From an uncultured Chloroflexia bacterium (GTDB lineage Bacteria; Chloroflexota; Anaerolineae; Anaerolineales; E44-bin32): a stretch of 64,000 nt of DNA. Made by a program: the position numbers and the translations under genes. Numbering within the stretch: position 1 is the stretch's first letter; every line of letters starts with the position of its first letter. The notes under the pieces are model-generated. The model saw only the letters and a list, made by a program, of their open reading frames with translations. It made no database searches and was not told the DNA's origin. This document shows, one piece after another, positions 10,380 to 64,000 of the stretch. Location: contig CAWBME010000006.1 of NCBI GenBank assembly GCA_963789825.1, positions 974,612-1,038,611 on the forward strand, in the 5' to 3' direction.

Positions 10380-11297
10380 ATGATGACCACCAGCTATCGA
10401 CACGGGAGCATCGTGGGGCCGGTCCTGCTGATCGGGTTCGGCGCGGTGCTGCTGCTGGACAACCTCGGCCTGCTGGGCCAGTCTCCCTGGACGGCACTGT
10501 TGCAGCTTTGGCCGGTGATCCTGGTATCCGTCGGCCTCGACCTTGCCATCGGCTACCGTTCCCGGGCAGGCGCTGCCACGGCGGCGGCTCTGTCGCTGAT
10601 CGTGCTGGGCGGAGCGATTGCCTGGCTCGCCGAAGCCGACCAGAGGCAACCGTTGGCGCTGCCGGGCGAGATGGTGCAGGTCGAGCTGAACGGCGTGACG
10701 TCGGCTGAGGTATTGCTGGCCCCGGTCGCCTCTGCCCTGCACGTCGGCGCGCTGGCGGACGAGACCTACTTGCTGGCCGGGAGGATCGCTTCCTATCGCG
10801 TCGAGGAAGTCGGCCAGAGCTATCAGCGCACCGGCGACCACGCTCAGGTCAGGCTCGAGACGGCTGGCGCTTCGGTCGTCCCGACGACGGCGTTCTCCGG
10901 ATCTTCCCCGACATGGGACCTGGACCTTACGCCCACGATCCCGCTGGCGATTGCTGTGAACCTCGTGGCCGGCCAGGCGGATCTCGCGCTCGCTCCGCTC
11001 ACCGCCGAGAGCCTCGCCGTCGACCTGGTCTTCGGACAGTCGACGGTCGTGCTCCCGGCCAATGGGAAATACGACGCTCGGCTATCGGGTGTGTTCGGGC
11101 AGACGGTGGTCGTGATCCCCGCCGGCCTGGAGGCAAGCGTGCGGATCGAGCCGCTGCTGACGGCGCGCACCGTCGACAGCAGCCTCCGCCAGCTTCCAGA
11201 CGGCCGCTACGTCACGGCAGGCTACGGCCAGTCCGAGAACCAGGTTGACCTGGTGATCTCGCAGGTCGTGGGAGCCATCGAGGTGCAGGCAGAGTAG
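10380..11297 (+). CDS. LiaF-like membrane protein with a C-terminal beta-rich (toast-rack/DUF2154-like) domain
   Basis: Intact 305-aa ORF after GGAAGGAG. The N-terminal TM pair is VLLIGFGAVLLLDNLGLL. The C-terminus has repetitive beta strands (DLDLTPTIPLAIAVNLVAGQADLALAP...). Confidence 0.6.
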   Translation: MMTTSYRHGSIVGPVLLIGFGAVLLLDNLGLLGQSPWTALLQLWPVILVSVGLDLAIGYRSRAGAATAAALSLIVLGGAIAWLAEADQRQPLALPGEMVQVELNGVTSAEVLLAPVASALHVGALADETYLLAGRIASYRVEEVGQSYQRTGDHAQVRLETAGASVVPTTAFSGSSPTWDLDLTPTIPLAIAVNLVAGQADLALAPLTAESLAVDLVFGQSTVVLPANGKYDARLSGVFGQTVVVIPAGLEASVRIEPLLTARTVDSSLRQLPDGRYVTAGYGQSENQVDLVISQVVGAIEVQAE

Positions 11298-11398
11298 CGC
11301 CGGCAGGCTGGCGGCGCCCTTCCCCCCGAGGAGCCAGCTGCCGCCCTGGCCCTGGCGAGAGAACCAAGGAGGCCGTCATCGACCCTCATTTTGACTTC

Positions 11399-12393
11399 TT
11401 GCGCGAACAAGGTCTTGCCATCCGAGCTGCCCGGCTTGACGACCTGCCGCGGGCGATTGAGATGTTCAATCTTGCCGAAACCGAGCTTATTGGCACCTGC
11501 ATGTGGACTGCGGAGCGCTACCAACAGGAGTGGAAGTTCCCCGGATTCGATCTGGATGAGGACACGCGCCTGGTGCTGGCGCCCGACGGTTCCCCGGTGG
11601 GCTGCGCCGAAGTATGGACACTGCTCGACCCGCCAGTCCATCCCTGGATGTGGAGCCGCATCCATCCGTCGTGGCGCGGGCAAGGTATTGGCACCGGCTT
11701 GCTGGCCTGGTCGCTAACTAGAGCGCTGCAGGCCATCGGGCGCGTCCCTCCGAGGCACGCTTCGCGCCGCGCGTCGCCGCCCCACTCGGGCATGAGCCCA
11801 GTGTTGCCTTGTTTCGCGATTTCGGCTTCGAGCCCGTCCGTCATAGTTGGACGATGACCATCGACCTCGGTGTTCCTCCGCCGGATGCCGCCTGGCCGCC
11901 AGGCATCCGGCTGCACCTCTTTCGGCATCCGCAGGATCTGCGCGCGGTCTACACCGCAACCATCGATGCCTTTCGAGATCACTGGGGTTTCATCGAGGTG
12001 CCATTTGAACAGGGGTTCCGCCAGTGGACGCACGCCTCGGTAGAGCTGCGCCCCTTCGATCCCAGCCTGTGGTTCATCGCATTTGACGGGGAAGAGATCG
12101 CCGGGATCGCCCTGTGTCGGGCGCACGCCGACGACGACCCCGAGATGGGCTGGGTCGACACCCTGGGAGTCCGCCGGCCGTGGCGCAAGCGCGGGCTTGG
12201 CCTGGCGCTGCTGCTGCACGCTTTCTCTGCCCTTCGCGCGACCGGCGCCCGCCGGGCAGGCCTCGGCGTCGACGCCGCCAGCCTGACCGGCGCGACCCGC
12301 CTGTATACCCGCGCCGGGATGCACGTGCTGCGCGAATCGACGACCTTCGAACTCGAATTGCGGCCCGGCGAGGAACTCGCCAGGCTCGAGTAG
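11399..12393 (+). CDS. Two-domain GNAT acetyltransferase (MshD-like architecture), frameshift ~11750
   Basis: ORFs 11399..11857 and 11809..12393. Each half carries a GNAT motif A (WRGQGIGTGLL and WRKRGLGLALLL). The junction reads ...RVPP|EARFAPRVAAPLGHEPSVALFRDFGFEPV after a 1-nt shift. Confidence 0.7.
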
Positions 12394-12433
12394 CGGCCCG
12401 CTCCTTGCGCCCAAGGCCGCCCACAGCCTCGGC

Positions 12434-13191
12434 ATGATCCAGGCCGGGGTCCGCGCCGCTCTTCCGCTGGTTGCGCCCGATGACCTACCTCGCATCCAAG
12501 GTGTTCATGCCGCTGTGGCAGATGCTGTTCTTCTCGCTGCTGGGGATGTTCGCCGGTGCGCAGGAACCGACGTACTATGTGATCGGCAACGCCATGCAGA
12601 TCACCGCGGTCAGCGGGATCTTCGGCGTGACGATGAGCATCGGCGGTGATCGCTGGGAGGGGACGCTGCCGTATCTGTTTGGCACGCCGGCCAACCGCAT
12701 GGCAATGGTATTCGGGCGCGCCTTCTTTCACATTCTGGACGGCATGCTTGGCGTCGTGCTGGCCTTCGGCTGGGGCGTAGCGCTGCTCGGCCTCGACCTT
12801 TCTCAGACCGATCCGGTGGCGCTGGCGCTGGTCGTGATCGCCAGCACGATCAGCACGGCAGGGCTCGGGCTGCTGCTGGGATGCCTGAGCCTGATCACCC
12901 TCAACGTGATGTTCGTCAACAACACGGTCTACTTCCTGCTGCTGGTCTTCAGCGGGGCCAACATCCCGATCGCCACGCTGCCGGCCTGGATGCAGGCGGT
13001 GTCCTTTGTCCTGCCGCTCACCCGCGGCATCGCTGCCGCACGGCTGGTGATCGAGGGGCCTCGCTACGATTGGTGACACCGCTGATCGCCGGCGAGCTGG
13101 TCATCGGGGCGATCTACGCCCTGCTCGGCTACTTCCTCTTCCGTTCGTTCGAGTTCCAGGCGAAGAACGCGGCACGCTGGAAGCCTTCTAG
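12434..13191 (+). pseudogene. ABC-2 type transporter permease, at least 3 frameshifts (~12458, ~13060, ~13165)
   Basis: ORF 12471..13076 forms the core (6 TM helices). The N-terminus MIQAGVRA lies in ORF 12434. The tail LIAGELVIGAIYALLGYFLFRSFEF lies in the 12881 frame. The final ...EERGTLEAF-stop at 13189..13191 is in a third frame. Confidence 0.6.
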
Positions 13192-13529
13192 CAGCTCGCG
13201 GAACGCCGCCACCCGCCTCACCTCCAACCCCGCTCCGTCGACAGCTGCCGATAGCACGCTGCGCAGCGGTCGAGAGCGCAGCATGGGGCGAGTCCGGCGC
13301 CGCCGCTGCCGGGCGCCGGCTTCGCGGTCCGAACCATCGGCGGGGCAATCCGCCGGATTGCCCGACCAAGCCTCCCGCTGTCTGACGATCGTGCGCTCGT
13401 CCGCGGACCATGCCGAGCTATCCCCGCCGGCCCAACGGGCACGCAGCGCAGGCTCGCACCGCGTCTCCGCGCAGCGAGGCTGAGATGGTGGTCAGCAGTC
13501 TACGCCTGTGCCCCCTGAAGCAGGAGGGA

Positions 13530-14150
13530 TCACGCCGCGAGGCGGGTGCGGGAGGCGGAACGGCGCGCCAGGGCCTGGTGCATGAACCGCTTGGCCACCT
13601 CGACCGGGATCGCCATGCCAACATCCGGCCCCGCCATCAGGGTGTTGATCCCAACCAGGCGCCCATGCACATCGATCAAGGCGCCGCCGGAATGCCCCGG
13701 GCGCAGGTGCAGACTGACGGCGATCCATTCGCCCTCAGCCTTGGGCAGCGCCGCCAAGGATTTCCCCACCTCGATCACACTGCCCAGCGTGGCTGCATAG
13801 GCGATACCCCACGGATGGCCCATCGCCAGCACCAGCTGCCCGCTGCGCAGTTGACGCGAGGCTCCGAGTTCAATCGCCGGCAAATCTTCGGCCTCAATCG
13901 CCAGCGCCGCCAGATCGAGCCGATGGTCACGAGCCAACACCGTGGCAGGATACTCGGCACCGCCCAGGCAACGCACCGTCAGCCGCCCGGCGCCGGCGAC
14001 GTGAGCGTTGGTGACGATCAGCCCAAGCGCGTGCCAGATCGTCCCGGCACCGGCGCCGCGCCCGTGCGACAGGACGTGCACCAGCGATGGACGCACTCGA
14101 TCGGCCGCTTCGCTCCAACCCGAACTCATTTCTTCCAGAACAAGACCCAT
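13530..14150 (-). CDS. Trypsin-like serine protease (S1C, no PDZ)
   Basis: Catalytic triad context is present: VTNAHV, DLAALAI, PGHSGGALID. Confidence 0.75.
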   Translation of the reverse strand: MGLVLEEMSSGWSEAADRVRPSLVHVLSHGRGAGAGTIWHALGLIVTNAHVAGAGRLTVRCLGGAEYPATVLARDHRLDLAALAIEAEDLPAIELGASRQLRSGQLVLAMGHPWGIAYAATLGSVIEVGKSLAALPKAEGEWIAVSLHLRPGHSGGALIDVHGRLVGINTLMAGPDVGMAIPVEVAKRFMHQALARRSASRTRLAA

Positions 14151-14238
14151 TCGGCTCTGCTCTCTTAGCCCGCAAGGGAGCGGAAGCCGCGCCGAGTCGG
14201 GCGGAAGGCTCCCAGGCTGAGCCCTGCGGCTCGCTGCA

Positions 14239-15132
14239 CTAGCCTCGCTCCCCGATCGTCACCTTCACCGACTTGAGCTGGCCGCCGCGCAGCAAGCCGA
14301 TCTCAACCGACTTTCCCACCCGTTCGCCGGAGAGCGCCCCGAACAGATCCTCCATCGACTGGAGGGACGATCCCTCGAGCGATAGCAGCGTATCGCCCAA
14401 CAGCATGCCCCCCTGGTCTGCCGGGCTGCCAGGCTCGACGGACATCACCAACAGCCCGGTTATCTGGCCGGCCTGCGCCGCAACCGCCTCGGGCAGCGGC
14501 ACGGTCTGTGCCCCTACGCCCAGGAACCCGCGCCGGATCCTGCCATGCTGCAGGAGAGTCTCGACCACTCGGCGAACGGTCTCGGTGGGCACGGCCAGGC
14601 TGACGCCCCGCAGCAGGCCCGAAGTCATTACACCGGCGACTCGGCCATCGGCTGTGACGAACGCGCCACCGGAGAACCCTGGATACATCACGGCATCGGT
14701 CTGCAGGTAGCGCTCGATCGCGCCGCCCATACCGGTCTGGAAGGGGCCGCCCACCGCGCTCACGATCCCCAACGTCGCCTGTACCGTCTTTCCCGGTCGT
14801 CCCACGGCCACTGCCAGATGGCCGACCTTCAGGTCATCCGTGGCACGCCAGATGGGGTTGGCGGCGCGCCCGGAAGCCAGACGCAGCACGGCCAGGTCAG
14901 TGCTGGGGTCGCGCCCTACCAGGGATGCCTCGGCGCTCTCGCCATCGGGCAGGCCGACGCGGATCGATTCATCCCGGCGCACGACGTGCTCAGCCGTTAC
15001 GATCACCCCCTCTGCCGACCACGCCACGCCGCTCGCTGGCAGGCGCCGTCGCCCCTCGACTCGCACGATTCCCGGCACGGAGCTGACCAGCGCCGCCAAT
15101 TCCTCCGAAACCGTCTCCAGAACCTTGTTCAT
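14239..15132 (-). CDS. HtrA-like serine protease with a C-terminal PDZ domain
   Basis: ORF 14239..15162, start MNKVLETV at 15132. The triad is TAEHV, DLAVLRL, PGFSGGAF. The PDZ-like region reads GFLGVGAQ...LVMSVEPGSPADQGGMLLGDTLLSLEG. Confidence 0.8.
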   Translation of the reverse strand: MNKVLETVSEELAALVSSVPGIVRVEGRRRLPASGVAWSAEGVIVTAEHVVRRDESIRVGLPDGESAEASLVGRDPSTDLAVLRLASGRAANPIWRATDDLKVGHLAVAVGRPGKTVQATLGIVSAVGGPFQTGMGGAIERYLQTDAVMYPGFSGGAFVTADGRVAGVMTSGLLRGVSLAVPTETVRRVVETLLQHGRIRRGFLGVGAQTVPLPEAVAAQAGQITGLLVMSVEPGSPADQGGMLLGDTLLSLEGSSLQSMEDLFGALSGERVGKSVEIGLLRGGQLKSVKVTIGERG

Positions 15133-15239
15133 GGCTTCACTCCTCTTGGACACCAAATCCATCGCCTGCCATGCTAGATGAACGCGGCCGACGCGTCACC
15201 GGCCAAAGGATCGGGGTAGGCCCTGTACTTTGGATCGGG

Positions 15240-15875
15240 TTAGAGGGGGATCAAGCCCATGCGGCCTGCACGGACGACGGCCTCGGTACGGCTTTGGGCA
15301 TCCATCTTTCGCAAGATCGCATTGACATGATACTTGACCGTGCTCTCGGTCACCCCCAGGCGGGCCGAGATGAGCTTGTTCGGCAGGCCATCGGCCATGA
15401 GCCGCAAGACCTGGAGCTCGCGCGCCGTCAGGGGCTCCGGAAGCGCCTCCGGGGTGGAGGGCTCAGCCGCCGGCGGACGGCTGGGCGGAAGGTCAGAGGC
15501 CCACAGTCCGGCCAGCACCGCCCGAGCAGCCGCCAGGACAACGGTGGGCTCGACCCGTCGGTGGAGCACAGCCCGTGCTCCGGCGGCCCAGGCGCTCTCG
15601 GCATCCTCAGCAGAATCGGCCAACACCAGCACGACCGGCAGCCTGGGCAGATGCTGCCGCAACAAGTCCAGGGAAACCTCGTCACCCCCGGCGTCCCACA
15701 CGACCAGGTCCGGCGAACCGTTCACCACCCACTCAGCCGCCTGCGGGGTGGGCAGGTCGACCGCCACCACCTCCCATCCTGGCTCGGATTGGAAGTAGGC
15801 AGCCAGGCCGGCGCGGATCACGGGCTCGGATGAGACGATCGTGACACGCTCGATGGATGGCTGGGACAGGATCAT
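15240..15875 (-). CDS. LuxR/NarL-type response regulator with a degenerate receiver domain
   Basis: The C-terminal HTH is LTARELQVLRLMADGLPNKLISARLGVTESTVKYHVNAILRKM. The receiver has SSE in place of the acidic DD pair and lacks the usual T and K positions. Confidence 0.8.
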   Translation of the reverse strand: MILSQPSIERVTIVSSEPVIRAGLAAYFQSEPGWEVVAVDLPTPQAAEWVVNGSPDLVVWDAGGDEVSLDLLRQHLPRLPVVLVLADSAEDAESAWAAGARAVLHRRVEPTVVLAAARAVLAGLWASDLPPSRPPAAEPSTPEALPEPLTARELQVLRLMADGLPNKLISARLGVTESTVKYHVNAILRKMDAQSRTEAVVRAGRMGLIPL

Positions 15876-32297: not shown

Positions 32298-33329
32298 ATG
32301 CAAGACCTGACGGAGCGCCAGGAGACGATCCTGGCGCTGGTGGTTCACGAGTACATCGAGAGCGCCGAGCCCGTCGGCTCGAAGTTCCTCGTGCAACGAT
32401 TTGTGCTTGACGTGAGTTCGGCCACGGTCCGCAACGAGATGCTTGCCCTGACCGAGGCGGGATTGTTGCGTCAGCCGCACACTTCGGCCGGGCGGGTTCC
32501 GACCGAGGAGGGATACCGCTACTTCGTGCGGCGGCTGCTGGGGGATACCGATCTGCCCCCGGACGAGAAGCGCCTGATCAGCCACCAGTTCCACCAGGCT
32601 CGCCCCCAGGTCGAGGAGTGGATGAGACTGGCGGCCTCGGTGCTCGCCCAGCATGCGAGCGCCCTGTCGTTGGTGACCGCCCCCCGCCCCGAGCGAGCAG
32701 TCTTCAAGCACCTCGAACTGATCTCCACTCGGCTGAACCAGGCACTGCTGGTGCTTGTGCTGCAAGGCGGCGATGTGCGCCAGCAGCTGCTCACCTTGCA
32801 GGAGGGGATGGACCAGGGTCATCTCAGCCTGCTGGCAGACCAGGTGACGCGTGCCTGCGCTGGCCAGACCGCCGAAAGCGTCCGCACGCAGGCGGAGCTC
32901 AGCAGCGGACTGCCCTCGGAAGTGATGCGCCTGGTGGCCGGGCTGATGGTCCAGGCGGATACCCCGCCGGCGGGCGAGGTCTTCCGCGATGGACTGACCA
33001 ACGTGCTGGCCCAGCCGGAGTTCGCCGAGCCGGGCAGCGCACAGGATGCCCTTCGGCTGCTGCAGGAGCAGACTTTCCTGGAGGGCGTCGTCAGCCGGGC
33101 GCTCCAGCCGACGGTCGGCGGGGTGCAGGTGGTGATCGGCGGCGAGGGCGCCTGGTCCGAGCTGCGCAATTGGTCCATGGTGCTGGCGCGCTACGGCACT
33201 CCGGGGTTCGCCACCGGCGCCGTGGGCGTGGTCGGCCCGACACGCATGTCCTACGGGCATTCGATATCCTGCGTGCGCTACGTGGCTGGCTTGATGAGCG
33301 AACTGGTGACCGAAAGCCTGGCCGGGTGA
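32298..33329 (+). CDS. hrcA: Heat-inducible transcription repressor HrcA
   Basis: ORF 32289..33329. ATG 32298 lies 8 nt after GGAGAGG. The N-terminal wHTH is LTERQETILALVVHEYIESAEPVGSKFL, with full-length HrcA colinearity. Confidence 0.95.
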   Translation: MQDLTERQETILALVVHEYIESAEPVGSKFLVQRFVLDVSSATVRNEMLALTEAGLLRQPHTSAGRVPTEEGYRYFVRRLLGDTDLPPDEKRLISHQFHQARPQVEEWMRLAASVLAQHASALSLVTAPRPERAVFKHLELISTRLNQALLVLVLQGGDVRQQLLTLQEGMDQGHLSLLADQVTRACAGQTAESVRTQAELSSGLPSEVMRLVAGLMVQADTPPAGEVFRDGLTNVLAQPEFAEPGSAQDALRLLQEQTFLEGVVSRALQPTVGGVQVVIGGEGAWSELRNWSMVLARYGTPGFATGAVGVVGPTRMSYGHSISCVRYVAGLMSELVTESLAG

Positions 33330-58358: not shown

Positions 58359-58520
58359 TCCTTCCTGAAGGTAGCATGGTAGTTCTGTCTGGATGTCGAA
58401 CAAACGGCCTGGGCGGAAACTGCTCGGGCCGGCTTGGTTCTTCCAGCACTTCCCGAAGAACCCGACCAGCCCAGGGAACGAACAGGCACCTATCCTCTTG
58501 TTGCCTAGGGAGGCAATGTC

Positions 58521-58730
58521 ATGTCTGGACGGATTCAGGGTACGGTCAAGTGGTTCAACAGCGGGAAGGGCTACGGCTTCATCTCGCGCGAGGGCGGGGA
58601 CGATGTGTTCGTTCATTTCTCCGCCATCCAGGGCGACGGCTATCGCGAGCTGCAGGAAGGCCAGCGAGTCGAGTTCGCCATCGCCCAGGGCCCGAAGGGC
58701 CTGCAGGCTGAGGCTGTCACCGTCCTCTAG
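58521..58730 (+). CDS. cspA: Cold-shock protein (CspA family)
   Basis: RNP1/RNP2 motifs are present: [24 protein letters not shown]. Confidence 0.95.
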
Positions 58731-58753
58731 TCGGACGGGATGGATGAAGCACG

Positions 58754-58787
58754 AAGCCCCCGGGCATGTCCCGGGGGCTTTTCGATT
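58754..58787 (+). terminator. Intrinsic terminator after cspA
   Basis: AAGCCCCCGGG-CATGT-CCCGGGGGCTT followed by TTCGATT. Confidence 0.75.
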
Positions 58788-59289
58788 CGGGTCCGCGGTT
58801 GGGTAGGAGCCGTCACCGAGGCGCAGCGCGGGTCTCCGCCGTGGGGCAAGCTGGCAGGGATTGCCTCAGATCCGGCGCGAGGGCCAGGCCGCATCGATCC
58901 CCGGCGCTTGGTGGTAGCTGAACCTGCGGCGCTTCACTCGGCGCCTCTTCGTTGAAGCCTGCAACTACGCCTCGCTCAGTTCGTGGGAGACCCCATCGGA
59001 GCATCCCCTTGGCTGCAGGGCAAGCCAACTCAGGCTCGGGACCTGACTGAAATCCAGGCTGAGCCCAACCTTCCCTATCGAGCCACCTTCATCGGGTGTT
59101 GCATCTTCGGGTGCTGCATCGCCCAGCTCCGGGAAGGACTGGATCCGGAAGGAAGCACGCTCCCGGACGCTGGGCAGCATTCGCACATTCAGGCAGCGTC
59201 AGGCGAGCCCCCCGGGCAACCGGGCGTCAGCAGCCACCGGGAAGGCACACGATTCCCCGGGCATGGGACTTTAGGGCTAGTCCCAGGGG

Positions 59290-59319
59290 TTGACTTCTTT
59301 CCCCGAAAGGCGCTAGAAT
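59290..59319 (+). promoter_or_regulatory. Putative sigma70-type promoter of the ubiquitin-like operon
   Basis: TTGACT (59290..59295), 18-nt spacer, TAGAAT (59314..59319). Confidence 0.55.
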
Positions 59320-59325
59320 AAGGTC

Positions 59326-59342
59326 TGCTGGTCTGACCAGCA
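59326..59342. promoter_or_regulatory. Perfect 17-bp palindrome, candidate GntR-type operator
   Basis: TGCTGGTC-T-GACCAGCA has 8+1+8 perfect dyad symmetry. It starts 7 nt after the -10 and ends 14 nt before ATG 59356. Its half-site TGGTC/GACCA fits the GT-Nx-AC rule for GntR-family operators. Confidence 0.5.
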
Positions 59343-59355
59343 TACCAGAGGGCGC

Positions 59356-61018
59356 ATGCAGATTGAGCAGATCGATCACCTGAGGCTTGGCCGAGCAGGT
59401 CGCGGGGCGGCTGGCGGCGTCCATCCTGGATGGTGGCTTGCAGGCCGGCGAGCAGCTCCCTGCCGAGCGCGACCTGATGACCCGTTTCGGCGTCAGCCGG
59501 GCCACGCTGCGCGAGGCGCTGCGCATGTTGGCCGAGCACGAACTGCTCGCGGCCCGCCCCGGCGTCGGCTGGTTCGTGCGCCAACCGGGGAAGCGGGTGC
59601 TGCCTTCGGTGATGGCGCTGGCGCAGGCCCACCGCCCTACGCTCCTGGCCGACACCCAGCCGGCGCGCCAGCCGCCGCCGGAGGGCCCGCGACGCCTGAC
59701 GGTCGTCGCCGAGAAGCCGCTGCATATCCCTAACCTGCGCACCGACCGCCTGGGCACTTTCGACTTCATCTCCTGGTGGGAACGGGACAAGGTCCAGGCC
59801 GCCCGCGTGCTGGTCGTCGGCGCAGGTGCCCTCGGCAACGAGGTCGTCAAGAGCCTGGCGCTGATGGGCATCGGTCATCTGTTCCTGGTCGACTTCGACA
59901 CGATCGAGGCCGCCAACCTCAGCCGCTCGGTGTTCTTTCGCGAGGCCGACACCGGGAAGGAAAAGGCGGTCGTCGTGGCGGCACGCGCCAAGGCGCTCAA
60001 CCCACAGATCCACGTCCAGCACCTGCAAGGGGACGTCACCACCCGACTGGGGTTGGGCATCGTCCGCCGCATGGACGTGGTCATCGGCTGCCTGGACAAC
60101 CGGGAGGCCCGCCTGGCGCTCAACCGCTTCTGTTACTGGATGGGCAAGCCGATGGTCGATGGCGCCATCCAGGAGCTGCTCGGCCTGGTGCGAGTGTTCG
60201 TCCCCGGACAGGGCGCCTGCTTCGAATGCACCCTGACCGAGCAGGCGCGCCGCGAGATCTCGCTGCGCTACTCCTGCCCGCTGCTCGCCCGTCACAACAT
60301 TCTGCAGGGCAAGGTGCCCACCACCCCGACCATCGCTTCGATCATCGGCTCGATGCAGGCCCAGGAAGCGCTCAAGCTGATTCACGCCATGCCGGTCGAG
60401 GCCGGCAAGGTGACCCATTTCAACGGCCTGACCAATGCGATGCACACCACCGCCTATGTGGCGCGGGAGGACTGCGAAAGCCACTGGACCTATGGGGAAG
60501 TGATCGAACTCGCCGCTCGTGCCGACAACACTCGGGTGCGGGACCTGCTCGAGGTCGCCCAGCGGGACCTCGGTCCGGAAGCGGTGATCGAACTCGACCA
60601 CGAACTGCTCCTTCGGCTGAGCTGCCCGCTCTGCCAGACCGTCGAGGAGGTCATCCGCCCGCTGTCCGAGGTGAGCTTCGAAGCCGGCCACTGCCCGTCC
60701 TGCGGGGTTCTGCGAGAGACCGACATGACGCACCTGCTCACCGGGCGGGAAGGCTTCCTCGATCGCACGCTGTCCAGCATCGGCGTCCCGCCGCTGCACA
60801 TCTTGCGCGCCCACAATGGCCGCGAGTACCGCTTCTACGAACTGACCGGCGACCTGGCGCAAGCGCTGCACTTCTCCGATTTCGAAGGACCCCCACCAGC
60901 CAGCAGCGATCCGCTCTCCGGCCAGCGCGTCCGGCTCGGGCCGGAGGTCGGAGAGACACCTGCTCCGGGCAGCCCGGCGCGTGGGCGGATCGTCGTCCAC
61001 CAATCGGAGGCGCAGTGA
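59356..61018 (+). CDS. E1-like Ubl-activating enzyme (ThiF/UBA fold) with an N-terminal GntR-type wHTH and C-terminal C4 zinc ribbon
   Basis: ORF 59387..61018. The wHTH is LPAERDLMTRFGVSRATLREALRMLAEHELLAARPGVGWFV. The Rossmann region is VLVVGAGALGNEV...LVDFDTIEAANLSRSVFF. ACFEC is followed by YSCP (Cys at 60275..60277), positioned like the catalytic Cys of UBA-type E1s. The zinc ribbon CPLC...CPSC lies at 60623..60703. The probable true start ATG 59356 (MQIEQIDHLRL) is one base out of frame (extra G ~59389). Confidence 0.8.
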
Positions 61019-61932
61019 CCATCTCGCTCACCCCGCCTCCTGCTCCACCGCCGCTGCGCCGCTCGCCGCGCCTGCCGCGCTGGCTGGGGATCATCTTTCC
61101 CCTGGTGGTACTGACTGCGCTCGGGATGACGTATGCCGCCGCCGTCAACCGCACGCTGCACCCGGCTGCTGTCCAGGCCGGCGGGGCGGCGGCGCTCGGC
61201 CTGGCCGCCGGCGCGCTGACGCGCAGGAGCGCCGCCGGCCGGCCGCTCGCCACGCAATGGTGGATCGCCGAGGCGGCGGCCACTCTCGGACTGCTGTTGG
61301 CCGGGCTGCTTTCCGGCGGCCGCAGCGGCATCGCCGCGCCGCTGGTCGGCGGCTCTGCGGCGCGCCTGGCAGACCTGGCCTGGCTGGCGCTTGCCGGGCT
61401 CGGCGCGTGGCTCGCGCTCCGCTACCACCGGCCGCGCCCGATGCGCCCGCCCCGACGGACGCTGCGGCAGCGGATCCATTCCTCCCAAGACGGCTGGCGA
61501 ATCCGCCTGCAGCGCCTGTCGCCCGCCCGCCTCTGGCGCCGCCATCGGCTGGGGCCGATGCACACCCGTCCGCGCCTCCCCACTGCCGCGGCCGCCGCCA
61601 CTGCACAGTCAGCTCCCCGGCATGCGCCCACCAGCCGCACCAGGCCGTCCCCCAAGGTCAAGCCCGCCAAAGCCCGCCGCCTGACCACCGCTCGCGCCTC
61701 CCGGCGCGCACCGAGGCGGATCGCACAGCGCCCCATTCGCTTCACCGGCAGGGAAGAATCGCGCTGCCCATACTGTCTGGAACGGGTATCCCCAAATGAC
61801 CCACGCGGATCCAGAGTCTGCCCGGTCTGCCACACTCGCCACCATGCGGACTGCTGGGCTGTAACCGGAGTCTGCCAGATGCCGCATCTGTACGTGGACG
61901 CCTCCGCCGGACGACAAGGAGCGAACCGATGA
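61015..61932 (+). CDS. 4-TM membrane protein with a C-terminal RING-like (treble-clef) zinc finger; candidate E3
   Basis: This is the 3' part of ORF 59776..61932. GTG 61015 overlaps the E1 stop (GTGA) after GGAGG. Four hydrophobic helices and an Arg/Pro-rich linker are followed by CPYC-x14-CPVC-HTRHHADC-x6-C (61765..61875). Confidence 0.65.
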   Translation: MTISLTPPPAPPPLRRSPRLPRWLGIIFPLVVLTALGMTYAAAVNRTLHPAAVQAGGAAALGLAAGALTRRSAAGRPLATQWWIAEAAATLGLLLAGLLSGGRSGIAAPLVGGSAARLADLAWLALAGLGAWLALRYHRPRPMRPPRRTLRQRIHSSQDGWRIRLQRLSPARLWRRHRLGPMHTRPRLPTAAAAATAQSAPRHAPTSRTRPSPKVKPAKARRLTTARASRRAPRRIAQRPIRFTGREESRCPYCLERVSPNDPRGSRVCPVCHTRHHADCWAVTGVCQMPHLYVDASAGRQGANR

Positions 61933-62777
61933 CCGACCTGGCCGTGACGATAGTCCTTCCCAACGGCGGCGCGCGCACGGCGGAGATGCCGGACGAGGTC
62001 AGCGTGCGTGATCTGCTGGCCGAGCTGACCTCGCTGCTCAAGCTCCCTACCCTCGGGCCGGATGGCCGGGCGATGGGCTACCGCATCGACAGCAAGGCGC
62101 TCGGCCGCGAGCTGCGCGAGGACGAGACGCTGGCCCAGGCTGGCGTTCCCGCCAACGACCGGCTGATCCTGACCGCCGACATCACCGCTGGCGCCAATCC
62201 AGTCGAGCAGTCACCGCGTCAGCGCCGGCTGCGCGGCGACCACGAGCGCATGGTCGAGTTGGCGGCGCGCAGCGATGTGATTCGCTTCGAGGCCCGGCCG
62301 GAGCATCCCGGCTGGGCGCCCGAGCGCTATGTCCTGACGTTTCGCTGCAAAGGCATCGCCAGCGTCGATCGGCAGGGCCGGCCCAAGTTCTCCGAACATC
62401 ATCAGGTGGAGATCTACCTGCACAGCCAATACCCGCAACGCTGGCCAGGGATGAAATGGCTGACGCCGATCTGGCATCCCAACATCAACCATCTCAATGG
62501 AAGCGTGTGTATCGACGCCGCCTGGTGGACGGCCGGTCGCTCGCTCGACCGGCTGGTGATCATGCTGGGCGAGATGATCCAGTACAAGAACTTCCACGAT
62601 GACCCGAAGCAGCCTCCCTTTCCGTGGGACGTCGAGGCTGCGCGCTGGTGCCGGGAGTATCGCCGCCGGCACCCCGATGCCTTCCCTGTCGATCGCCGTG
62701 AACTGCTGCGGCCCGAACGCGTCAAGCTCGCCGGTCAGCCGGCGGCCAAGGCGCGCCCACGCGTCCGCCTGAAGTAG
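61929..62777 (+). CDS. Ubl-E2 fusion: N-terminal beta-grasp Ubl (aa 1-88, ends ITAG) + UBC-fold E2 with HPN motif and catalytic Cys
   Basis: ATG 61929 overlaps the previous stop (ATGA). The E2 core is YPQRWPGMKWLTPIWHPNINHLNGSVCID (HPN 62475..62483, Cys 62508..62510). The N-terminal 85 aa are ~70% identical to the free Ubl at 62824..63120. Confidence 0.8.
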   Translation: MTDLAVTIVLPNGGARTAEMPDEVSVRDLLAELTSLLKLPTLGPDGRAMGYRIDSKALGRELREDETLAQAGVPANDRLILTADITAGANPVEQSPRQRRLRGDHERMVELAARSDVIRFEARPEHPGWAPERYVLTFRCKGIASVDRQGRPKFSEHHQVEIYLHSQYPQRWPGMKWLTPIWHPNINHLNGSVCIDAAWWTAGRSLDRLVIMLGEMIQYKNFHDDPKQPPFPWDVEAARWCREYRRRHPDAFPVDRRELLRPERVKLAGQPAAKARPRVRLK

Positions 62778-62823
62778 CCGGTGCCGACGGGAAGATCCAA
62801 CTCAGCCACAGGAGGCAGACACC

Positions 62824-63120
62824 ATGACCGACAACGTGAAAGAGGAAACCCGGGCAGCGGAACTCTCGGTGACGATTGTGCTCCCCTCCGGGGGAAGCCG
62901 GACGGCGGACGTGCCGCGTGAGGTGCCGGTGCGCGAGTTGATCCCCGAGCTCACCACATCGCTCGGCTTGCCGACGACCGGGCCCGACGGACGACCGACC
63001 AGCTACCGCTTGGACAGCAAGGCCCTCGGTCGCGAGCTGCGCGAGGAAGAGACGCTGGCCTCGGCCGGCGTCCCAGAAGGCGACCGCCTGATCGTGACCG
63101 CCGACGTGACCGCCGGCTGA
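62824..63120 (+). CDS. Free ubiquitin-like (beta-grasp) protein ending ...VTAG-stop
   Basis: A 98-aa ORF after AGGAGG. It has an alternating beta/alpha pattern (VTIVLPSGGSRTADVPREVPVRELIPELTTSLGLP...YRLDSKALGRELREEETLASAGVPEGDRLIVTADVTAG) and an exposed C-terminal Gly. Confidence 0.75.
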   Translation: MTDNVKEETRAAELSVTIVLPSGGSRTADVPREVPVRELIPELTTSLGLPTTGPDGRPTSYRLDSKALGRELREEETLASAGVPEGDRLIVTADVTAG

Positions 63121-63137
63121 GCTCGATCGGCTTTCAT

Positions 63138-63168
63138 CCCCGCCCGGCGGCATGCGCCCCGGGCGGGG
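63138..63168 (+). other. GC-rich hairpin between the Ubl and JAB genes, 3' arm abutting the JAB Shine-Dalgarno
   Basis: CCCCGCCCGG (63138..63147) pairs perfectly with CCGGGCGGGG (63159..63168). The sequence GGGGAGG that follows and overlaps it is the only RBS for ATG 63182. No U-tract follows. Confidence 0.5.
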
Positions 63169-63181
63169 AGGCCAGGTGGAT

Positions 63182-63844
63182 ATGATCTCGGACTCGACAC
63201 GCATTCGGATCGGCGCCAGGGAAGCCATCCAAGCCGCGCCCGGGCACATGCCGGTGCAGCAGGCGCTCCACTGGCTCTCGGCGTACGACAGCCCTCGCCC
63301 GGCGGAGGGAATGCGCGTGTTCATGACGCCCTCGGCCTACGTTCGCTGCTGCGCGCATGCTGGCAGCGATCTGGTGCACGAGGTCGGCGGGGCGCTCGTC
63401 GGCCGGTGGCGGGTGGATGCCGCCACGCGCCAGCCCTACCAGGTGATCGAGGCGGTCCTGCCGGCGCGCCACACCCGCCACGGCCCTGCCTACCTGACCT
63501 TCACCCAGGACAGCCTGGTGGCATTGAACGATGATCTCGAGGAGCGTTTCCCCGGCCGGCTGATGCTCGGCTGGTATCACACCCACCCGCGGATGGGGGT
63601 CTTTCTCTCCGGGCAGGATCTCTGGATCCACGAGCACTTCTTCCCCGAGCCCTGGCAGGTGGCGCTGGTGATCGAGCCGGTGACGCGCGCCGGCGGGTTC
63701 TTCGTGCGGGACAAGGCAGGTCGCCTCGACCCACACGCCTACACCGGCTTCCACGAGCTGCTGCGCGACGGACGCGGCAGCCTGATGGTGTGGACCAATC
63801 TCAGCCAAGAGGTAGTGGCAGTCGAGGAAGGAGTATCTGGATGA
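63182..63844 (+). CDS. JAB/MPN+ (JAMM) metalloisopeptidase
   Basis: ORF 63152..63844, start ATG 63182. It has a Glu in HEVGGALVG and the JAMM motif HTHPRMGVFLSGQD (63578..63619). Confidence 0.85.
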   Translation: MISDSTRIRIGAREAIQAAPGHMPVQQALHWLSAYDSPRPAEGMRVFMTPSAYVRCCAHAGSDLVHEVGGALVGRWRVDAATRQPYQVIEAVLPARHTRHGPAYLTFTQDSLVALNDDLEERFPGRLMLGWYHTHPRMGVFLSGQDLWIHEHFFPEPWQVALVIEPVTRAGGFFVRDKAGRLDPHAYTGFHELLRDGRGSLMVWTNLSQEVVAVEEGVSG

Positions 63845-64000
63845 GCCGGTCGATGCGCACGTATTACTACGCCGTGGCAGGCGCCATGGGTGGGCTGATC
63901 GCCTGGCAGGTCAGCAACTTGATCGGGCTGTCGTTCTCGGCCAATCTGTACCTCAACGAAGTCGTCGTCGGTGGCCTGATCGGCCTGTGCATCGGACTGC
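63841..64000 (+). CDS. Membrane protein, 5' fragment (continues beyond the window), translationally coupled to JAB
   Basis: ATG 63841 overlaps the JAB stop (ATGA). Translation: MSRSMRTYYYAVAGAMGGLIAWQVSNLIGLSFSANLYLNEVVVGGLIGLCIGL, with at least two hydrophobic helices. Confidence 0.5.
   Translation, partial: MSRSMRTYYYAVAGAMGGLIAWQVSNLIGLSFSANLYLNEVVVGGLIGLCIGL

Follow-up and report, generated by a model that had tools for sequence, protein, structure and literature searches.

The end of a 64,000-nucleotide stretch of DNA from an uncultured Chloroflexia bacterium (contig CAWBME010000006.1; the whole stretch is referred to as the window) encodes a ubiquitin-like protein (Ubl) cassette in which five complete genes follow one another: a GntR-type winged helix-turn-helix (wHTH) domain fused to a ubiquitin-activating-type enzyme (E1), a membrane protein with a RING-type finger, a Ubl fused to a ubiquitin-conjugating-type enzyme (E2), a free Ubl and a JAB metalloprotease. 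We consider it fairly likely, from the sequence comparisons described below, that the cassette specifies a membrane-directed, self-regulated Ubl conjugation pathway and that it represents a class-wide Anaerolineae variant of the prokaryotic operons combining E1, E2, RING, Ubl and JAB. Confidence in the target of this pathway, and in the function of a C-terminal tail motif common to several of its proteins, is much lower than confidence in the general mechanism. The region examined (59290-64000) holds six plus-strand open reading frames (ORFs), the last of which runs off the window. An earlier sequence-only reading had assigned the five products as wHTH-E1, membrane RING-like E3, Ubl-E2 fusion, free Ubl and JAB isopeptidase; all five assignments hold by profiles and by conservation, and every motif and junction that it listed was located on the sequence at the position given. 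Its region start, 59290, is the -35 hexamer of a promoter-like site and not a coding start.

Relatives were collected by scanning the Ubl-E2 protein against one genome per species, which returned at least 271 species genomes encoding a relative. The 80 best loci among these (referred to by L numbers) were fetched, their gene maps were drawn by tblastn, and orthologue alignments of 63-79 sequences were prepared (E1, n=64; Ubl-E2, n=79; RING protein, n=74 homologues). The synteny survey proposed in the sequence-only reading showed a conserved gene order in 80 of 80 related loci; specifically, E1 > RING > Ubl-E2 > Ubl > JAB > membrane gene is found in every locus that is long enough, with L037 and L047 as exceptions. 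Loss of conservation at the motif residues had been named as grounds for abandoning the claim. These residues are invariant or at least 98% conserved across the 63-79 orthologues, and for this reason the motifs are not chance matches. The proposed profile searches recovered GntR, ThiF, Prok-RING_1, YukD, UQ_con and JAB, with RING below its cut-off in the window protein (curated Pfam cut-offs are 29.1 bits for Prok-RING_1, 27 bits for UQ_con and 22.5 bits for JAB). The products measure 543 aa (E1), 305 aa (RING protein, GTG start), 282 aa (Ubl-E2), 98 aa (free Ubl) and 230 aa (JAB). The Ubl-E2 proteins of the 80 best loci are 70-87% identical to that of the window, and relative to L001 the identities are 81% for E1, 87% for E2 and 67% for the neighbouring HtrA. 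All 80 loci are labelled as Anaerolineae, Anaerolineales or other Chloroflexota metagenome-assembled genomes (MAGs) except L025, labelled 'Candidatus Eisenbacteria', whose order, spacing and per-gene identities almost exactly match those of the Chloroflexi contig L023. This label is probably a binning or labelling error rather than a second phylum.

The E1 is organized such that a GntR wHTH domain (aa 1-81) precedes a ThiF/E1 adenylation domain (aa 130-360) with Cys297 in its crossover loop, followed by a beta-rich C-terminal domain (aa 370-493) that carries a CxxC...CxxC zinc ribbon and by a disordered tail with an RVRL...RIVVH motif. Pfam assigns GntR at E=5.6e-21 (profile positions 2-64) and ThiF at E=7.7e-55. 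The GAGALG loop (59819-59836) and the CFEC and YSCP motifs, the latter with the Cys297 codon at 60275-60277, had already been noted, and the alignment places them within a larger invariant set comprising GAGALG, D169-F-D171, N177-L-S-R180, K193, D237, C278/C281, Y-S-C297-P, D362-C-x-S-H-W and both C-terminal CxxC pairs. The protein is a ThiF-fold E1 whose adenylation residues and catalytic Cys are intact. Because Cys297 lies 16 residues past the CxxC pair, the catalytic Cys is located in a short crossover loop and not in the inserted Cys domain of UBA1-type E1s. The sequence-only reading had likened this spacing to UBA-type E1s; a catalytic Cys is indeed present, but its placement is not that of UBA1 and resembles instead ThiF, MoeB and UBA5, whose catalytic Cys also sits in a short crossover loop.

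Best PDB sequence relatives of the E1 are the eukaryotic UBA7/UBA1 (1.6e-25), ahead of ThiF (4.8e-22). The AlphaFold model has a mean predicted local distance difference test (pLDDT) score of 74.6, with disorder at residues 85-129 and in the tail, a low-confidence loop around Cys297 and a confidently predicted C-terminal domain. A Foldseek search with this model, as the sequence-only reading had suggested, gave UBA3 in the NEDD8 E1 complex as the top match (9.4e-17, 442 aligned columns), with ThiF and UBA5 also among the top matches. Since UBA3 aligns over 442 columns and ThiF, MoeB and most UBA5 chains over about 236-245, the model suggests that the C-terminal domain may correspond to a ubiquitin-fold domain. 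UBA5, the E1 of the UFM1 pathway, shares with the window E1 a crossover-loop Cys that needs no inserted Cys domain and a disordered C-terminal tail carrying short linear motifs; unlike UBA5, the window E1 has an extra folded domain (aa 370-493) with a zinc ribbon. Public annotations name the protein 'adenylyltransferase/sulfurtransferase', and automatic annotation recognizes both its GntR and ThiF domains. No description of a GntR-ThiF fusion was found in the searched literature.

What would a DNA-binding domain do on an E1? The only sigma-70-like match in 58400-64000 is the promoter-like site listed in Table 1, and a TTGAC / TATAAT pair stands at equal distance from the operator in related loci. 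Two bases past this site begins a palindrome whose core, TGGTCTGACCA, occupies 59329-59339; the predicted GntR-E1 operator sequence is GGTATGCTGGTCTGACCAGCATACC. The exact 11-mer core occurs in 51 of the 80 loci, in one copy each (two in L015), and lies directly upstream of E1 wherever the tblastn map permits a check. Among the 57 loci that contain the E1 5' end, the core is exact in 41, has one mismatch in 13 and two mismatches in 3, and the chance expectation for an 11-mer is estimated at about 0.6 occurrences in ~1.2 Mb, both strands included. When loci are anchored on the core, TTGAC, TATAAT, the outer arms GGTAT...ATACC and an ATG ~27-29 nt downstream all align, and in several loci the palindrome is perfect (12+1+12). 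A TGGT-N3-ACCA palindrome is a typical operator of the GntR family, and ThiF and MoeB form dimers. The core was not found in L081 and L083, whose E1 has no GntR domain and which serve as negative controls. Because the core is conserved just past the promoter and is absent where E1 lacks GntR, GntR-E1 probably represses its own operon by binding the palindrome, and the position of the operator over the transcription start argues for repression. The obvious candidates for cues that would relieve it are loading with Ubl or ATP, or self-modification. The window has one exact copy of the core. A one-mismatch copy at 32990-33000 (TGGACTGACCA) was considered as a further regulon member and rejected, being inside a long ORF, devoid of outer arms and at chance level. 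In L037 and L047 the RING gene is 5' of E1 and hence upstream of the operator, which is still directly upstream of E1.

GntR-family regulators such as FadR, HutC, MocR and YtrA share two features with the E1: the GntR wHTH is N-terminal, and a palindrome with a GT...AC core, the operator or predicted operator, lies at the promoter of the gene for the regulator itself. They differ from it in their C-terminal part, which here is a ThiF/E1 enzyme with a zinc ribbon and not an FCD, UTRA, aminotransferase or YtrA-type domain, such that the E1 joins the wHTH and the palindrome of the family to none of the C-terminal domains by which its subfamilies are recognized. The genes appear to be transcribed together: 4-nt overlaps are present at three junctions (GTGA at 61015, ATGA at 61929 and ATGA at 63841, as previously noted), and there is a single promoter-like site. 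A CSD cold-shock gene (58521-58730) lies directly upstream, as does a terminator-like hairpin (58928-58945), and therefore the cassette opens its own transcription unit at 59290.

The second gene encodes four transmembrane (TM) helices (aa 22-136), a basic disordered linker and a C-terminal Prok-RING_1 finger (aa 248-292) with the pattern C-x2-C-x13-C-x2-C-x4-H-x2-C-W-x5-C-x3-H, which corresponds to the finger CPYC...CPVCHTRHHADCW...C recognized earlier at 61765-61875. All 74 homologues match PF14446 (Prok-RING_1; best 1.2e-9); PF14446 is also the precomputed label of many of them, and NCBI calls one a 'RING finger protein'. C251, C254, C269, C272, H276/H277, C280, W281, C287 and H291 are invariant among them, so that eight Cys/His ligands and one Trp are fixed in the finger, in keeping with PF14446 membership; the TM part is poorly conserved in sequence. 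The four TM helices and finger described in the sequence-only reading are reproduced with confidence by AlphaFold (mean pLDDT 76), which places the helices at 22-44, 50-72, 78-99 and 114-136 (pLDDT 82-96 in 10-residue blocks), followed by two cytosolic helices at 150-179, the disordered basic linker and the finger at 248-292 (block pLDDT about 79-91). Positively charged segments are found on both sides of the TM bundle, and a cytosolic location of the N-terminus and the RING would fit this sequence. An RBR-type thioester mechanism for this E3 is unlikely, since the position that we take to be the HOIL-1 catalytic Cys (Ala in the PDB construct) aligns with an invariant Arg in the finger.

The third gene joins a YukD-like Ubl (aa 1-88, ending ...LTADITAG) through a variable linker to an E2 whose tail reads ...RPERVKL-x-PRVRLK. 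Pfam assigns YukD at E=1.4e-8 and UQ_con at E=6.1e-10 (39.3 bits, above its cut-off). The HPN motif (62475-62483, aa 183-185) and Cys194 (62508-62510) that had been pointed out are at least 98% conserved among the 79 Ubl-E2 sequences, as is the LTADITAG that ends the fused Ubl ahead of the variable linker. Best PDB sequence relatives are UBE2K/UBE2N/UBE2D (5e-8), aligned over IWHPNI...G..C.D, and by sequence the protein qualifies as a UBC-fold E2 with HPN and a catalytic Cys. The free Ubl, preceded by an AGGAGG ribosome-binding site, matches YukD at E=7e-14 and is 71% identical to the Ubl of gene 3. It ends at ...TADVTAG or ...TADITAG followed by a stop codon in 61 of 67 loci, and five others have a two-residue extension, such that the free copy exposes its C-terminal Gly as translated and the fused copy carries an exposable one. 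The claim of two beta-grasp Ubls ending in Gly is upheld by these YukD matches and conserved TAG ends. The related Ubls of L081 and L083 end ...TAGI and ...TAGA. Among solved structures the best match of the Ubl is weak (Caldiarchaeum Ub, CsUb, 0.13), and the Ubls also weakly match EccD of the type VII secretion system (T7SS). The fifth gene supplies an MPN+/JAMM protease in the same operon: JAB is matched at E=7.8e-8 (32.6 bits, against 22.5), the JAMM motif HTHPRMGVFLSGQD lies at 63578-63619 as the sequence-only reading had it, and its HxH...S..D residues are conserved in orthologues. Its best PDB relative is the Caldiarchaeum Rpn11-like protein (CsRpn11, 1.6e-10), followed by Rpn11, AMSH and CSN5.

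Table 1. Features of the Ubl cassette at the end of the window (positions are those of the window).
Feature	Position	Strand	Basis
Promoter-like site, TTGACT-18-nt spacer-TAGAAT	59290..59319	+	sigma-70-like match
25-bp palindromic operator, GGTCTGC-TGGTCTGACCA-GCATACC	59322..59346	.	predicted GntR-domain binding site
Gene 1, GntR-wHTH-E1	59387..61018	+	Pfam, invariant residues, AlphaFold, Foldseek, PDB sequence search
Gene 2, 4TM-RING	61015..61932	+	Pfam, homologue alignment, AlphaFold
Gene 3, YukD-like Ubl fused to UBC-fold E2	61929..62777	+	Pfam, alignment, PDB sequence search
Gene 4, free YukD-like Ubl, 98 aa, ending ...TADVTAG-stop	62824..63120	+	Pfam, loci comparison
Gene 5, JAB/MPN+ metalloprotease, HxHx7Sx2D	63152..63844	+	Pfam, alignment, PDB sequence search
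Gene 6, first 53 codons only	63841..64000	+	identity from relatives
Window tails with the C-terminal motif (vWA tails carry it in L003-L080)	E1 60930-61015; E2 62700-62774	+	sequence pattern

The sequence-only reading ended the cassette with a further membrane protein. This is gene 6, a multi-pass protein with an FHA domain in relatives, where the cassette runs on, past the end of the window, to a vWA gene. The window holds 53 codons of gene 6, and the features of genes 6 and 7 were assessed in relatives, where gene 6 is present in 71 and gene 7 in 66 of the 80 loci. The gene 6 product is typically 285 aa long, passes the membrane several times with Gly-rich helices and ends in a degenerate FHA domain. 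The vWA protein of gene 7 is exported: it has a signal peptide, carries MIDAS residues in the form DxSxS and is anchored by a TM helix near its C-terminus, after which a short basic tail lies in the cytosol. The FHA fold of gene 6 is recognized by profile (PF00498; E=4e-11 in L003, 2e-12 in L044), and the domain also matches the Yop-YscD_cpl profile. Compared with GarA (e.g., L003:5560-5880), the R of GR is replaced by S, the S of SxxH by A and the N of NGT by A/S. Among 66 full-length orthologues 'GS' is found in 54, 'IAPQHA' in 44 and 'S-x-[SAT]-G-T' in 53, with no match in 12-13 for each, and the canonical Arg, Ser and Asn that contact phosphothreonine (pThr) were not found in gene 6 orthologues. 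Because these contacts are replaced across orthologues, the domain probably binds peptides independently of phosphorylation. The PDB entry that it matches best is 3gqs, deposited as adenylate cyclase-like, which we take to be a Chlamydia FHA protein associated with the type III secretion system. A conserved stretch of E1 with T119/T124, ahead of the Rossmann fold, was considered as an FHA ligand and rejected: in ThiF/MoeB adenylation domains its counterpart is the N-terminal helix, and residues for pThr binding are missing from the FHA domain. In L005 (11903-12765) gene 6 ends short of the FHA domain, with a 255-nt gap before the vWA gene, which is probably an assembly frameshift error. Other 'MFD'-series MAGs with split tblastn matches in E1 or gene 6 are L011, L034, L048, L058 and L064.

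E1, Ubl-E2 and vWA have in common a basic/hydrophobic C-terminal motif, often in two copies with acidic residues after it, as in ...RPERVKL-x10-KPRVRLK-stop of E2, ...SRIKLK-stop of vWA and ...RIRLGxEV-x12-GRVVLHE-stop of E1. Counted as [RK][IV][RK][LIFM] within the last 10 residues, it is present in 66/78 loci for E2, 42/63 for vWA and 34/77 for E1, and in 0/68 for JAB, 0/79 for the RING protein and 0/67 for TM-FHA, against a background rate of 0.69 per 1000 aa. A looser version, IRFTG/IRLTGxEE, directly precedes the finger in most RING proteins, and in the Planctomycetota relative described below the motif recurs at the N-termini of RING and JAB as well as in the tails of E2 and vWA. SUMO-interacting motifs (SIMs) resemble such an I-x-I-L core with acidic flanks, and the tail motifs of UBA5 bind Ubl and E2. 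Because of the SIM-like core and the UBA5 precedent, the tail motifs are possibly docking elements for the Ubl or the FHA domain. A role as a general Lys acceptor site is unlikely: many E1 tails and some vWA tails have Arg/His and no Lys.

The surroundings were described as housekeeping in the sequence-only reading, and the window flanks indeed encode CSD, HtrA-like, DoxX, MetK and ProRS proteins. Flanks vary between genomes, and those of the window are shared only with L001. About 23-25 loci have the cassette after nusG-rplK-rplA-rplJ-rplL and before a divergent lexA; elsewhere it is flanked by an ABC transporter and an HlyD-like gene. GC content is unremarkable. Beyond the orthologues, a search of 50%-identity representatives gave 632 clusters at E<=1e-10 and 72 at E<=1e-30, the Anaerolineae orthologues forming one cluster. 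Distant members (35-53% identity) include E2-only proteins, Ubl-E2 fusions ending ...AG and 2xUbl-E2. One of them, P0261 (624 aa), reads Ubl-E2-Ubl(...TVAG)-unknown domain-TIR-like C-terminus when its sequence is judged by eye, and looks like a conflict-system version of the E2 family.

A related cassette, in which ThiF carries no GntR, occurs in a Planctomycetota MAG (L081, L082) and in an unlabelled metagenome contig (L083), in the order ThiF - TM-RING - Ubl (...TAGI/...TAGA) - E2 - JAB - [vWA+RING] - TM-FHA - vWA. The presence of FHA and vWA in the Planctomycetota relative means that the link between the conjugation core, FHA and vWA crosses phyla, and by sequence comparison the GntR-E1 fusion and the combination of Ubl-E2 with a free Ubl mark the Anaerolineae variant. 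In the bracketed protein (L081:11476-12759, L083:7486-8763) a vWA domain that is exported is joined through a TM helix to a Prok-RING_1 finger at the C-terminus; the protein weakly matches the Ssl1/TFIIH p44 vWA profile and has no counterpart in the Anaerolineae cassette. L085 (2277-8849) encodes E1, a 243-aa YukD protein, RING, Ubl, E2, JAB and vWA-RING next to a WYL regulator and type I CRISPR-Cas (Cas6, Cas3, Cas8b; 10760-15260), unlike the housekeeping context in Anaerolineae, and L084 has Ubl-E2-JAB only.

How would these proteins work together? We hypothesize that GntR-E1, as a ThiF-type dimer presenting two wHTH domains, binds the 25-bp palindrome past the -10 element and represses a seven-gene operon. 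The free Ubl would be made in mature, Gly-ended form, and the second Ubl would be released from Ubl-E2 by a JAB cut after ...TAG88, by analogy with type I Bub operons. E1 would adenylate the C-terminal Gly of the Ubl, hold it as a thioester on Cys297 and hand it to E2 Cys194 beside HPN, and the 4TM-RING protein would then bring E2~Ubl to the membrane, on its cytoplasmic side, and promote transfer to lysines. Targets are likely to be membrane-proximal, the best candidate being the Lys-rich cytosolic tail of the co-encoded vWA protein, and JAB would reverse the modification, acting as both maturase and eraser. The [RK][IV][RK][LIF] tails of E1, E2 and vWA could serve as docking elements, bound either by the FHA domain of gene 6 or, much as SIMs are, by the acidic Ubl, with the TM-FHA and vWA proteins as scaffold and/or target. 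A more specific version holds that E1 is the transcription factor of the operon and is set by its catalytic state, such that the pathway senses its own flux, and that the cassette performs non-immune, housekeeping ubiquitination of membrane proteins through the membrane RING, with the vWA tail as best target and assembly through tail motifs. Taken as a whole, this version is possible but doubtful.

Several observations weigh against the proposed pathway. The finger of the window protein reaches only E=4.4e-5 and 23.8 bits against Prok-RING_1, under the curated 29.1. Its profile finds weak PDB matches (HOIL-1 RBR domain, 0.0034; TRIM5 RING, 0.019), and Foldseek, run on PDB with the complete 4TM-RING model, returned nothing at E<=0.001; the helical bundle dominates that search, which is therefore uninformative on the RING fold. 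We know of no proteasome in Anaerolineae. Distant E2 relatives occur in conflict contexts, namely the TIR-like fusion P0261 and the CRISPR-Cas-adjacent L085, and YukD, the founding member of the family to which the Ubl belongs, was reported not to be conjugated in B. subtilis (PMC1779556). The start of E1 is also irregular. The ORF in the window begins at TTG 59387, orthologues (N-terminus MKIQPI...) start ~10 codons earlier at the equivalent of ATG 59356, and the frame from that ATG reads MQIEQIDHLRL... in the window, one base out of frame owing to one extra base near 59386 in the DNA alignment with L001. The E1 of L001 starts MGRMQIEQVDHLTLSAQVAGRL, and P0121, a 96%-identical protein with an intact N-terminus, begins MQIEQIDHLRLAEQVAGRL. 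The extra base is an indel of the assembly, or else the frameshift is genuine and translation re-initiates at TTG 59387; the GntR domain is intact under both readings.

The component set is not without precedent. Operons with JAB, E1, a prokaryotic RING E3 and Ubl-E2 have been described computationally by Aravind's group (PMC7159879, citing Burroughs 2011), and the 2011 predictions of Burroughs, Iyer and Aravind are also described in PMC10557695 and PMC5654768. The sequence-only reading held the architecture to be experimentally undescribed; no experimental account of it was found in the searched literature, but the component set had already been predicted and is less unprecedented than was implied. 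The predicted Prok-RING_1 (PF14446) operons share JAB, E1, a prokaryotic RING E3 and a Ubl-E2 fusion with the window. The papers describing them present these operons as rare or sporadic conflict systems with MoxR, FtsH, EAD1 and caspase partners, whereas the present cassette is class-wide, has housekeeping flanks and no such effectors, and contains GntR-E1 with a conserved operator. The kind of operon is thus known from prediction; new are its class-wide housekeeping fixation, GntR-E1 and its operator, the degenerate FHA and the tail motif, some of which Burroughs 2011 may already report.

Among characterised systems the closest relative is one that the sequence-only reading also mentioned, the Ub/E1/E2/small-RING/Rpn11 operon of Caldiarchaeum subterraneum, whose CsRpn11 is also the best PDB match of the JAB protein. 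This operon has been reconstituted in vitro (PMC5654768), with processing by Rpn11 (PMC6043591), and is the only reconstituted prokaryotic E1/E2/RING cascade, an archaeal one, found in the searched literature. Shared by both are the compactness of the operon, the single-domain Ubl, the MPN+ protease and the RING-type finger; in both, E1 is of the ThiF type and has a catalytic Cys, and E2 is a UBC protein in which HPN and Cys are present. The window differs in its bacterial host, in an E1 with an N-terminal GntR wHTH and a short Cys loop only, in a RING carried on four TM helices, in the added TM-FHA and exported vWA partners and in a YukD-like Ubl that ends AG rather than GG and is present twice, E2-fused and free. 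In type I Bub operons (BubAB, BubCD, BubE) JAB cuts the Ubl-E2 fusion after a conserved Gly (PMC11601596), and a Ubl-E2 fusion with a conserved Gly at the junction is likewise present here. However, E1 and E2 of type I Bub have no catalytic cysteines and form Ser/Tyr oxyesters, JAB is fused to E1, and BubE is a DUF6527 protease (PMC11601596), whereas the present cassette keeps HPN and both cysteines invariant, encodes JAB apart from E1, includes a RING and lacks BubE; the Ubl-E2 fusion is shared, and the JAB-E1 fusion, Ser-type E2 and DUF6527 BubE are not. With the PADLOC models for BilA, BilB, BilC and BilD the only match was a weak one of BilD to E1 (31.4 bits) among generic E1-E2 matches, and the PADLOC 'E1-E2' models match E1 over its adenylation domain only. 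Type II of the cyclic oligonucleotide-based anti-phage signalling systems (CBASS; Cap2/Cap3) is marked by an E2-E1 fusion protein with a CD-NTase and an effector beside it. In the window E2 has a gene of its own, and no CD-NTase family match was found by Pfam among the cassette genes. By their defining features Bil, Bub and CBASS are different families.

The main rival to conjugation in a cellular role is a role in conflict or phage defence, as for Bil, Bub or CBASS type II, in which the Ubl would be placed on an invader protein or would control an effector, with vWA and FHA as sensor and scaffold. Every bacterial E1/E2 operon studied by experiment so far takes part in either stress response or defence against phages (PMC11601603, PMC10557695). 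RING/Ubl-E2/E1/JAB modules are assigned by Aravind's group to conflict systems that contain vWA (PMC7159879), and the TIR-like C-terminus of P0261 (by reading its sequence), the position of the L085 cassette beside WYL and type I CRISPR-Cas and the lexA downstream in ~23 loci point the same way. Nevertheless, PADLOC gave no match for E2, Ubl, RING, TM-FHA or vWA and only generic ones for E1 and JAB, and the scan of viral contigs returned no relative. The order is fixed and E2 is 70-87% identical in the 80 best of at least 271 species genomes, whereas a patchy distribution is typical of defence systems; core housekeeping genes flank the cassette; and the Anaerolineae cassette has no effector domain (nuclease, TIR or caspase). 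Distribution, context and lack of an effector disfavour this role, which we regard as unlikely.

Could the Ubls act without being conjugated at all? A secretion or assembly accessory, in which YukD-like Ubls are structural adaptors of a type VII-like kind that work with a YscD-like FHA and an exported vWA, and in which E1 and E2 are regulators or vestigial, would be in keeping with the YukD and weak T7SS EccD matches, with the Yop-YscD_cpl match of the FHA domain and its best PDB match 3gqs, and with the absence of conjugation reported for B. subtilis YukD (PMC1779556). Vestigial enzymes would not keep their residues, and here those for adenylation, thioester formation and the JAMM site are all invariant; the free Ubl ends at a conserved ...TAG in 61/67 loci, and no FtsK/EssC ATPase, WXG100 or secretin gene was seen in the cassette flanks, so that this explanation is improbable. 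That the cassette serves a sulfur carrier or a cofactor, as ThiF/MoeB-ThiS/MoaD pathways do, with the fused GntR domain as its transcriptional regulator, is scarcely credible: E1 does match the NCBIfam ThiF and MoeB models and bears 'adenylyltransferase/sulfurtransferase' annotations, but the matches are far under the cut-offs, the UBC E2, RING finger and JAB are always present, the best PDB sequence matches of E1 are UBA7 and UBA1 ahead of ThiF, and the cassette has no rhodanese domain, cysteine desulfurase, or thiazole or molybdopterin synthase gene. Membrane-directed, self-regulated Ubl conjugation remains the reading that we favour.

Bacterial Ubl conjugation is an active field (CBASS Cap2, Bil, Bub), and the bacterial operons nearest to eukaryotic E1-E2-RING E3 logic are, in the searchable literature, uncharacterised and called rare. 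Strong purifying selection acts on the cassette described here, whose gene order is fixed; it occurs in at least 271 species genomes of a single lineage and stands among core genes, and it therefore speaks for a cellular function rather than, or besides, phage defence. Its E1 is the first to be found fused to a DNA-binding domain in the searchable literature and comes with a defined, predicted promoter and operator. Experimental handles are provided by a Ubl that is mature as translated, a further one that would have to be cut from E2, a membrane RING, the TM-FHA and vWA partners and the tail motif. If the more specific version, with flux sensing by E1 and a vWA target, were true, the pathway would be a bacterial counterpart of eukaryotic membrane-protein ubiquitination, and conjugation itself, if true, would bear on the pre-eukaryotic origin of the three-enzyme ubiquitin cascade and of membrane E3s.

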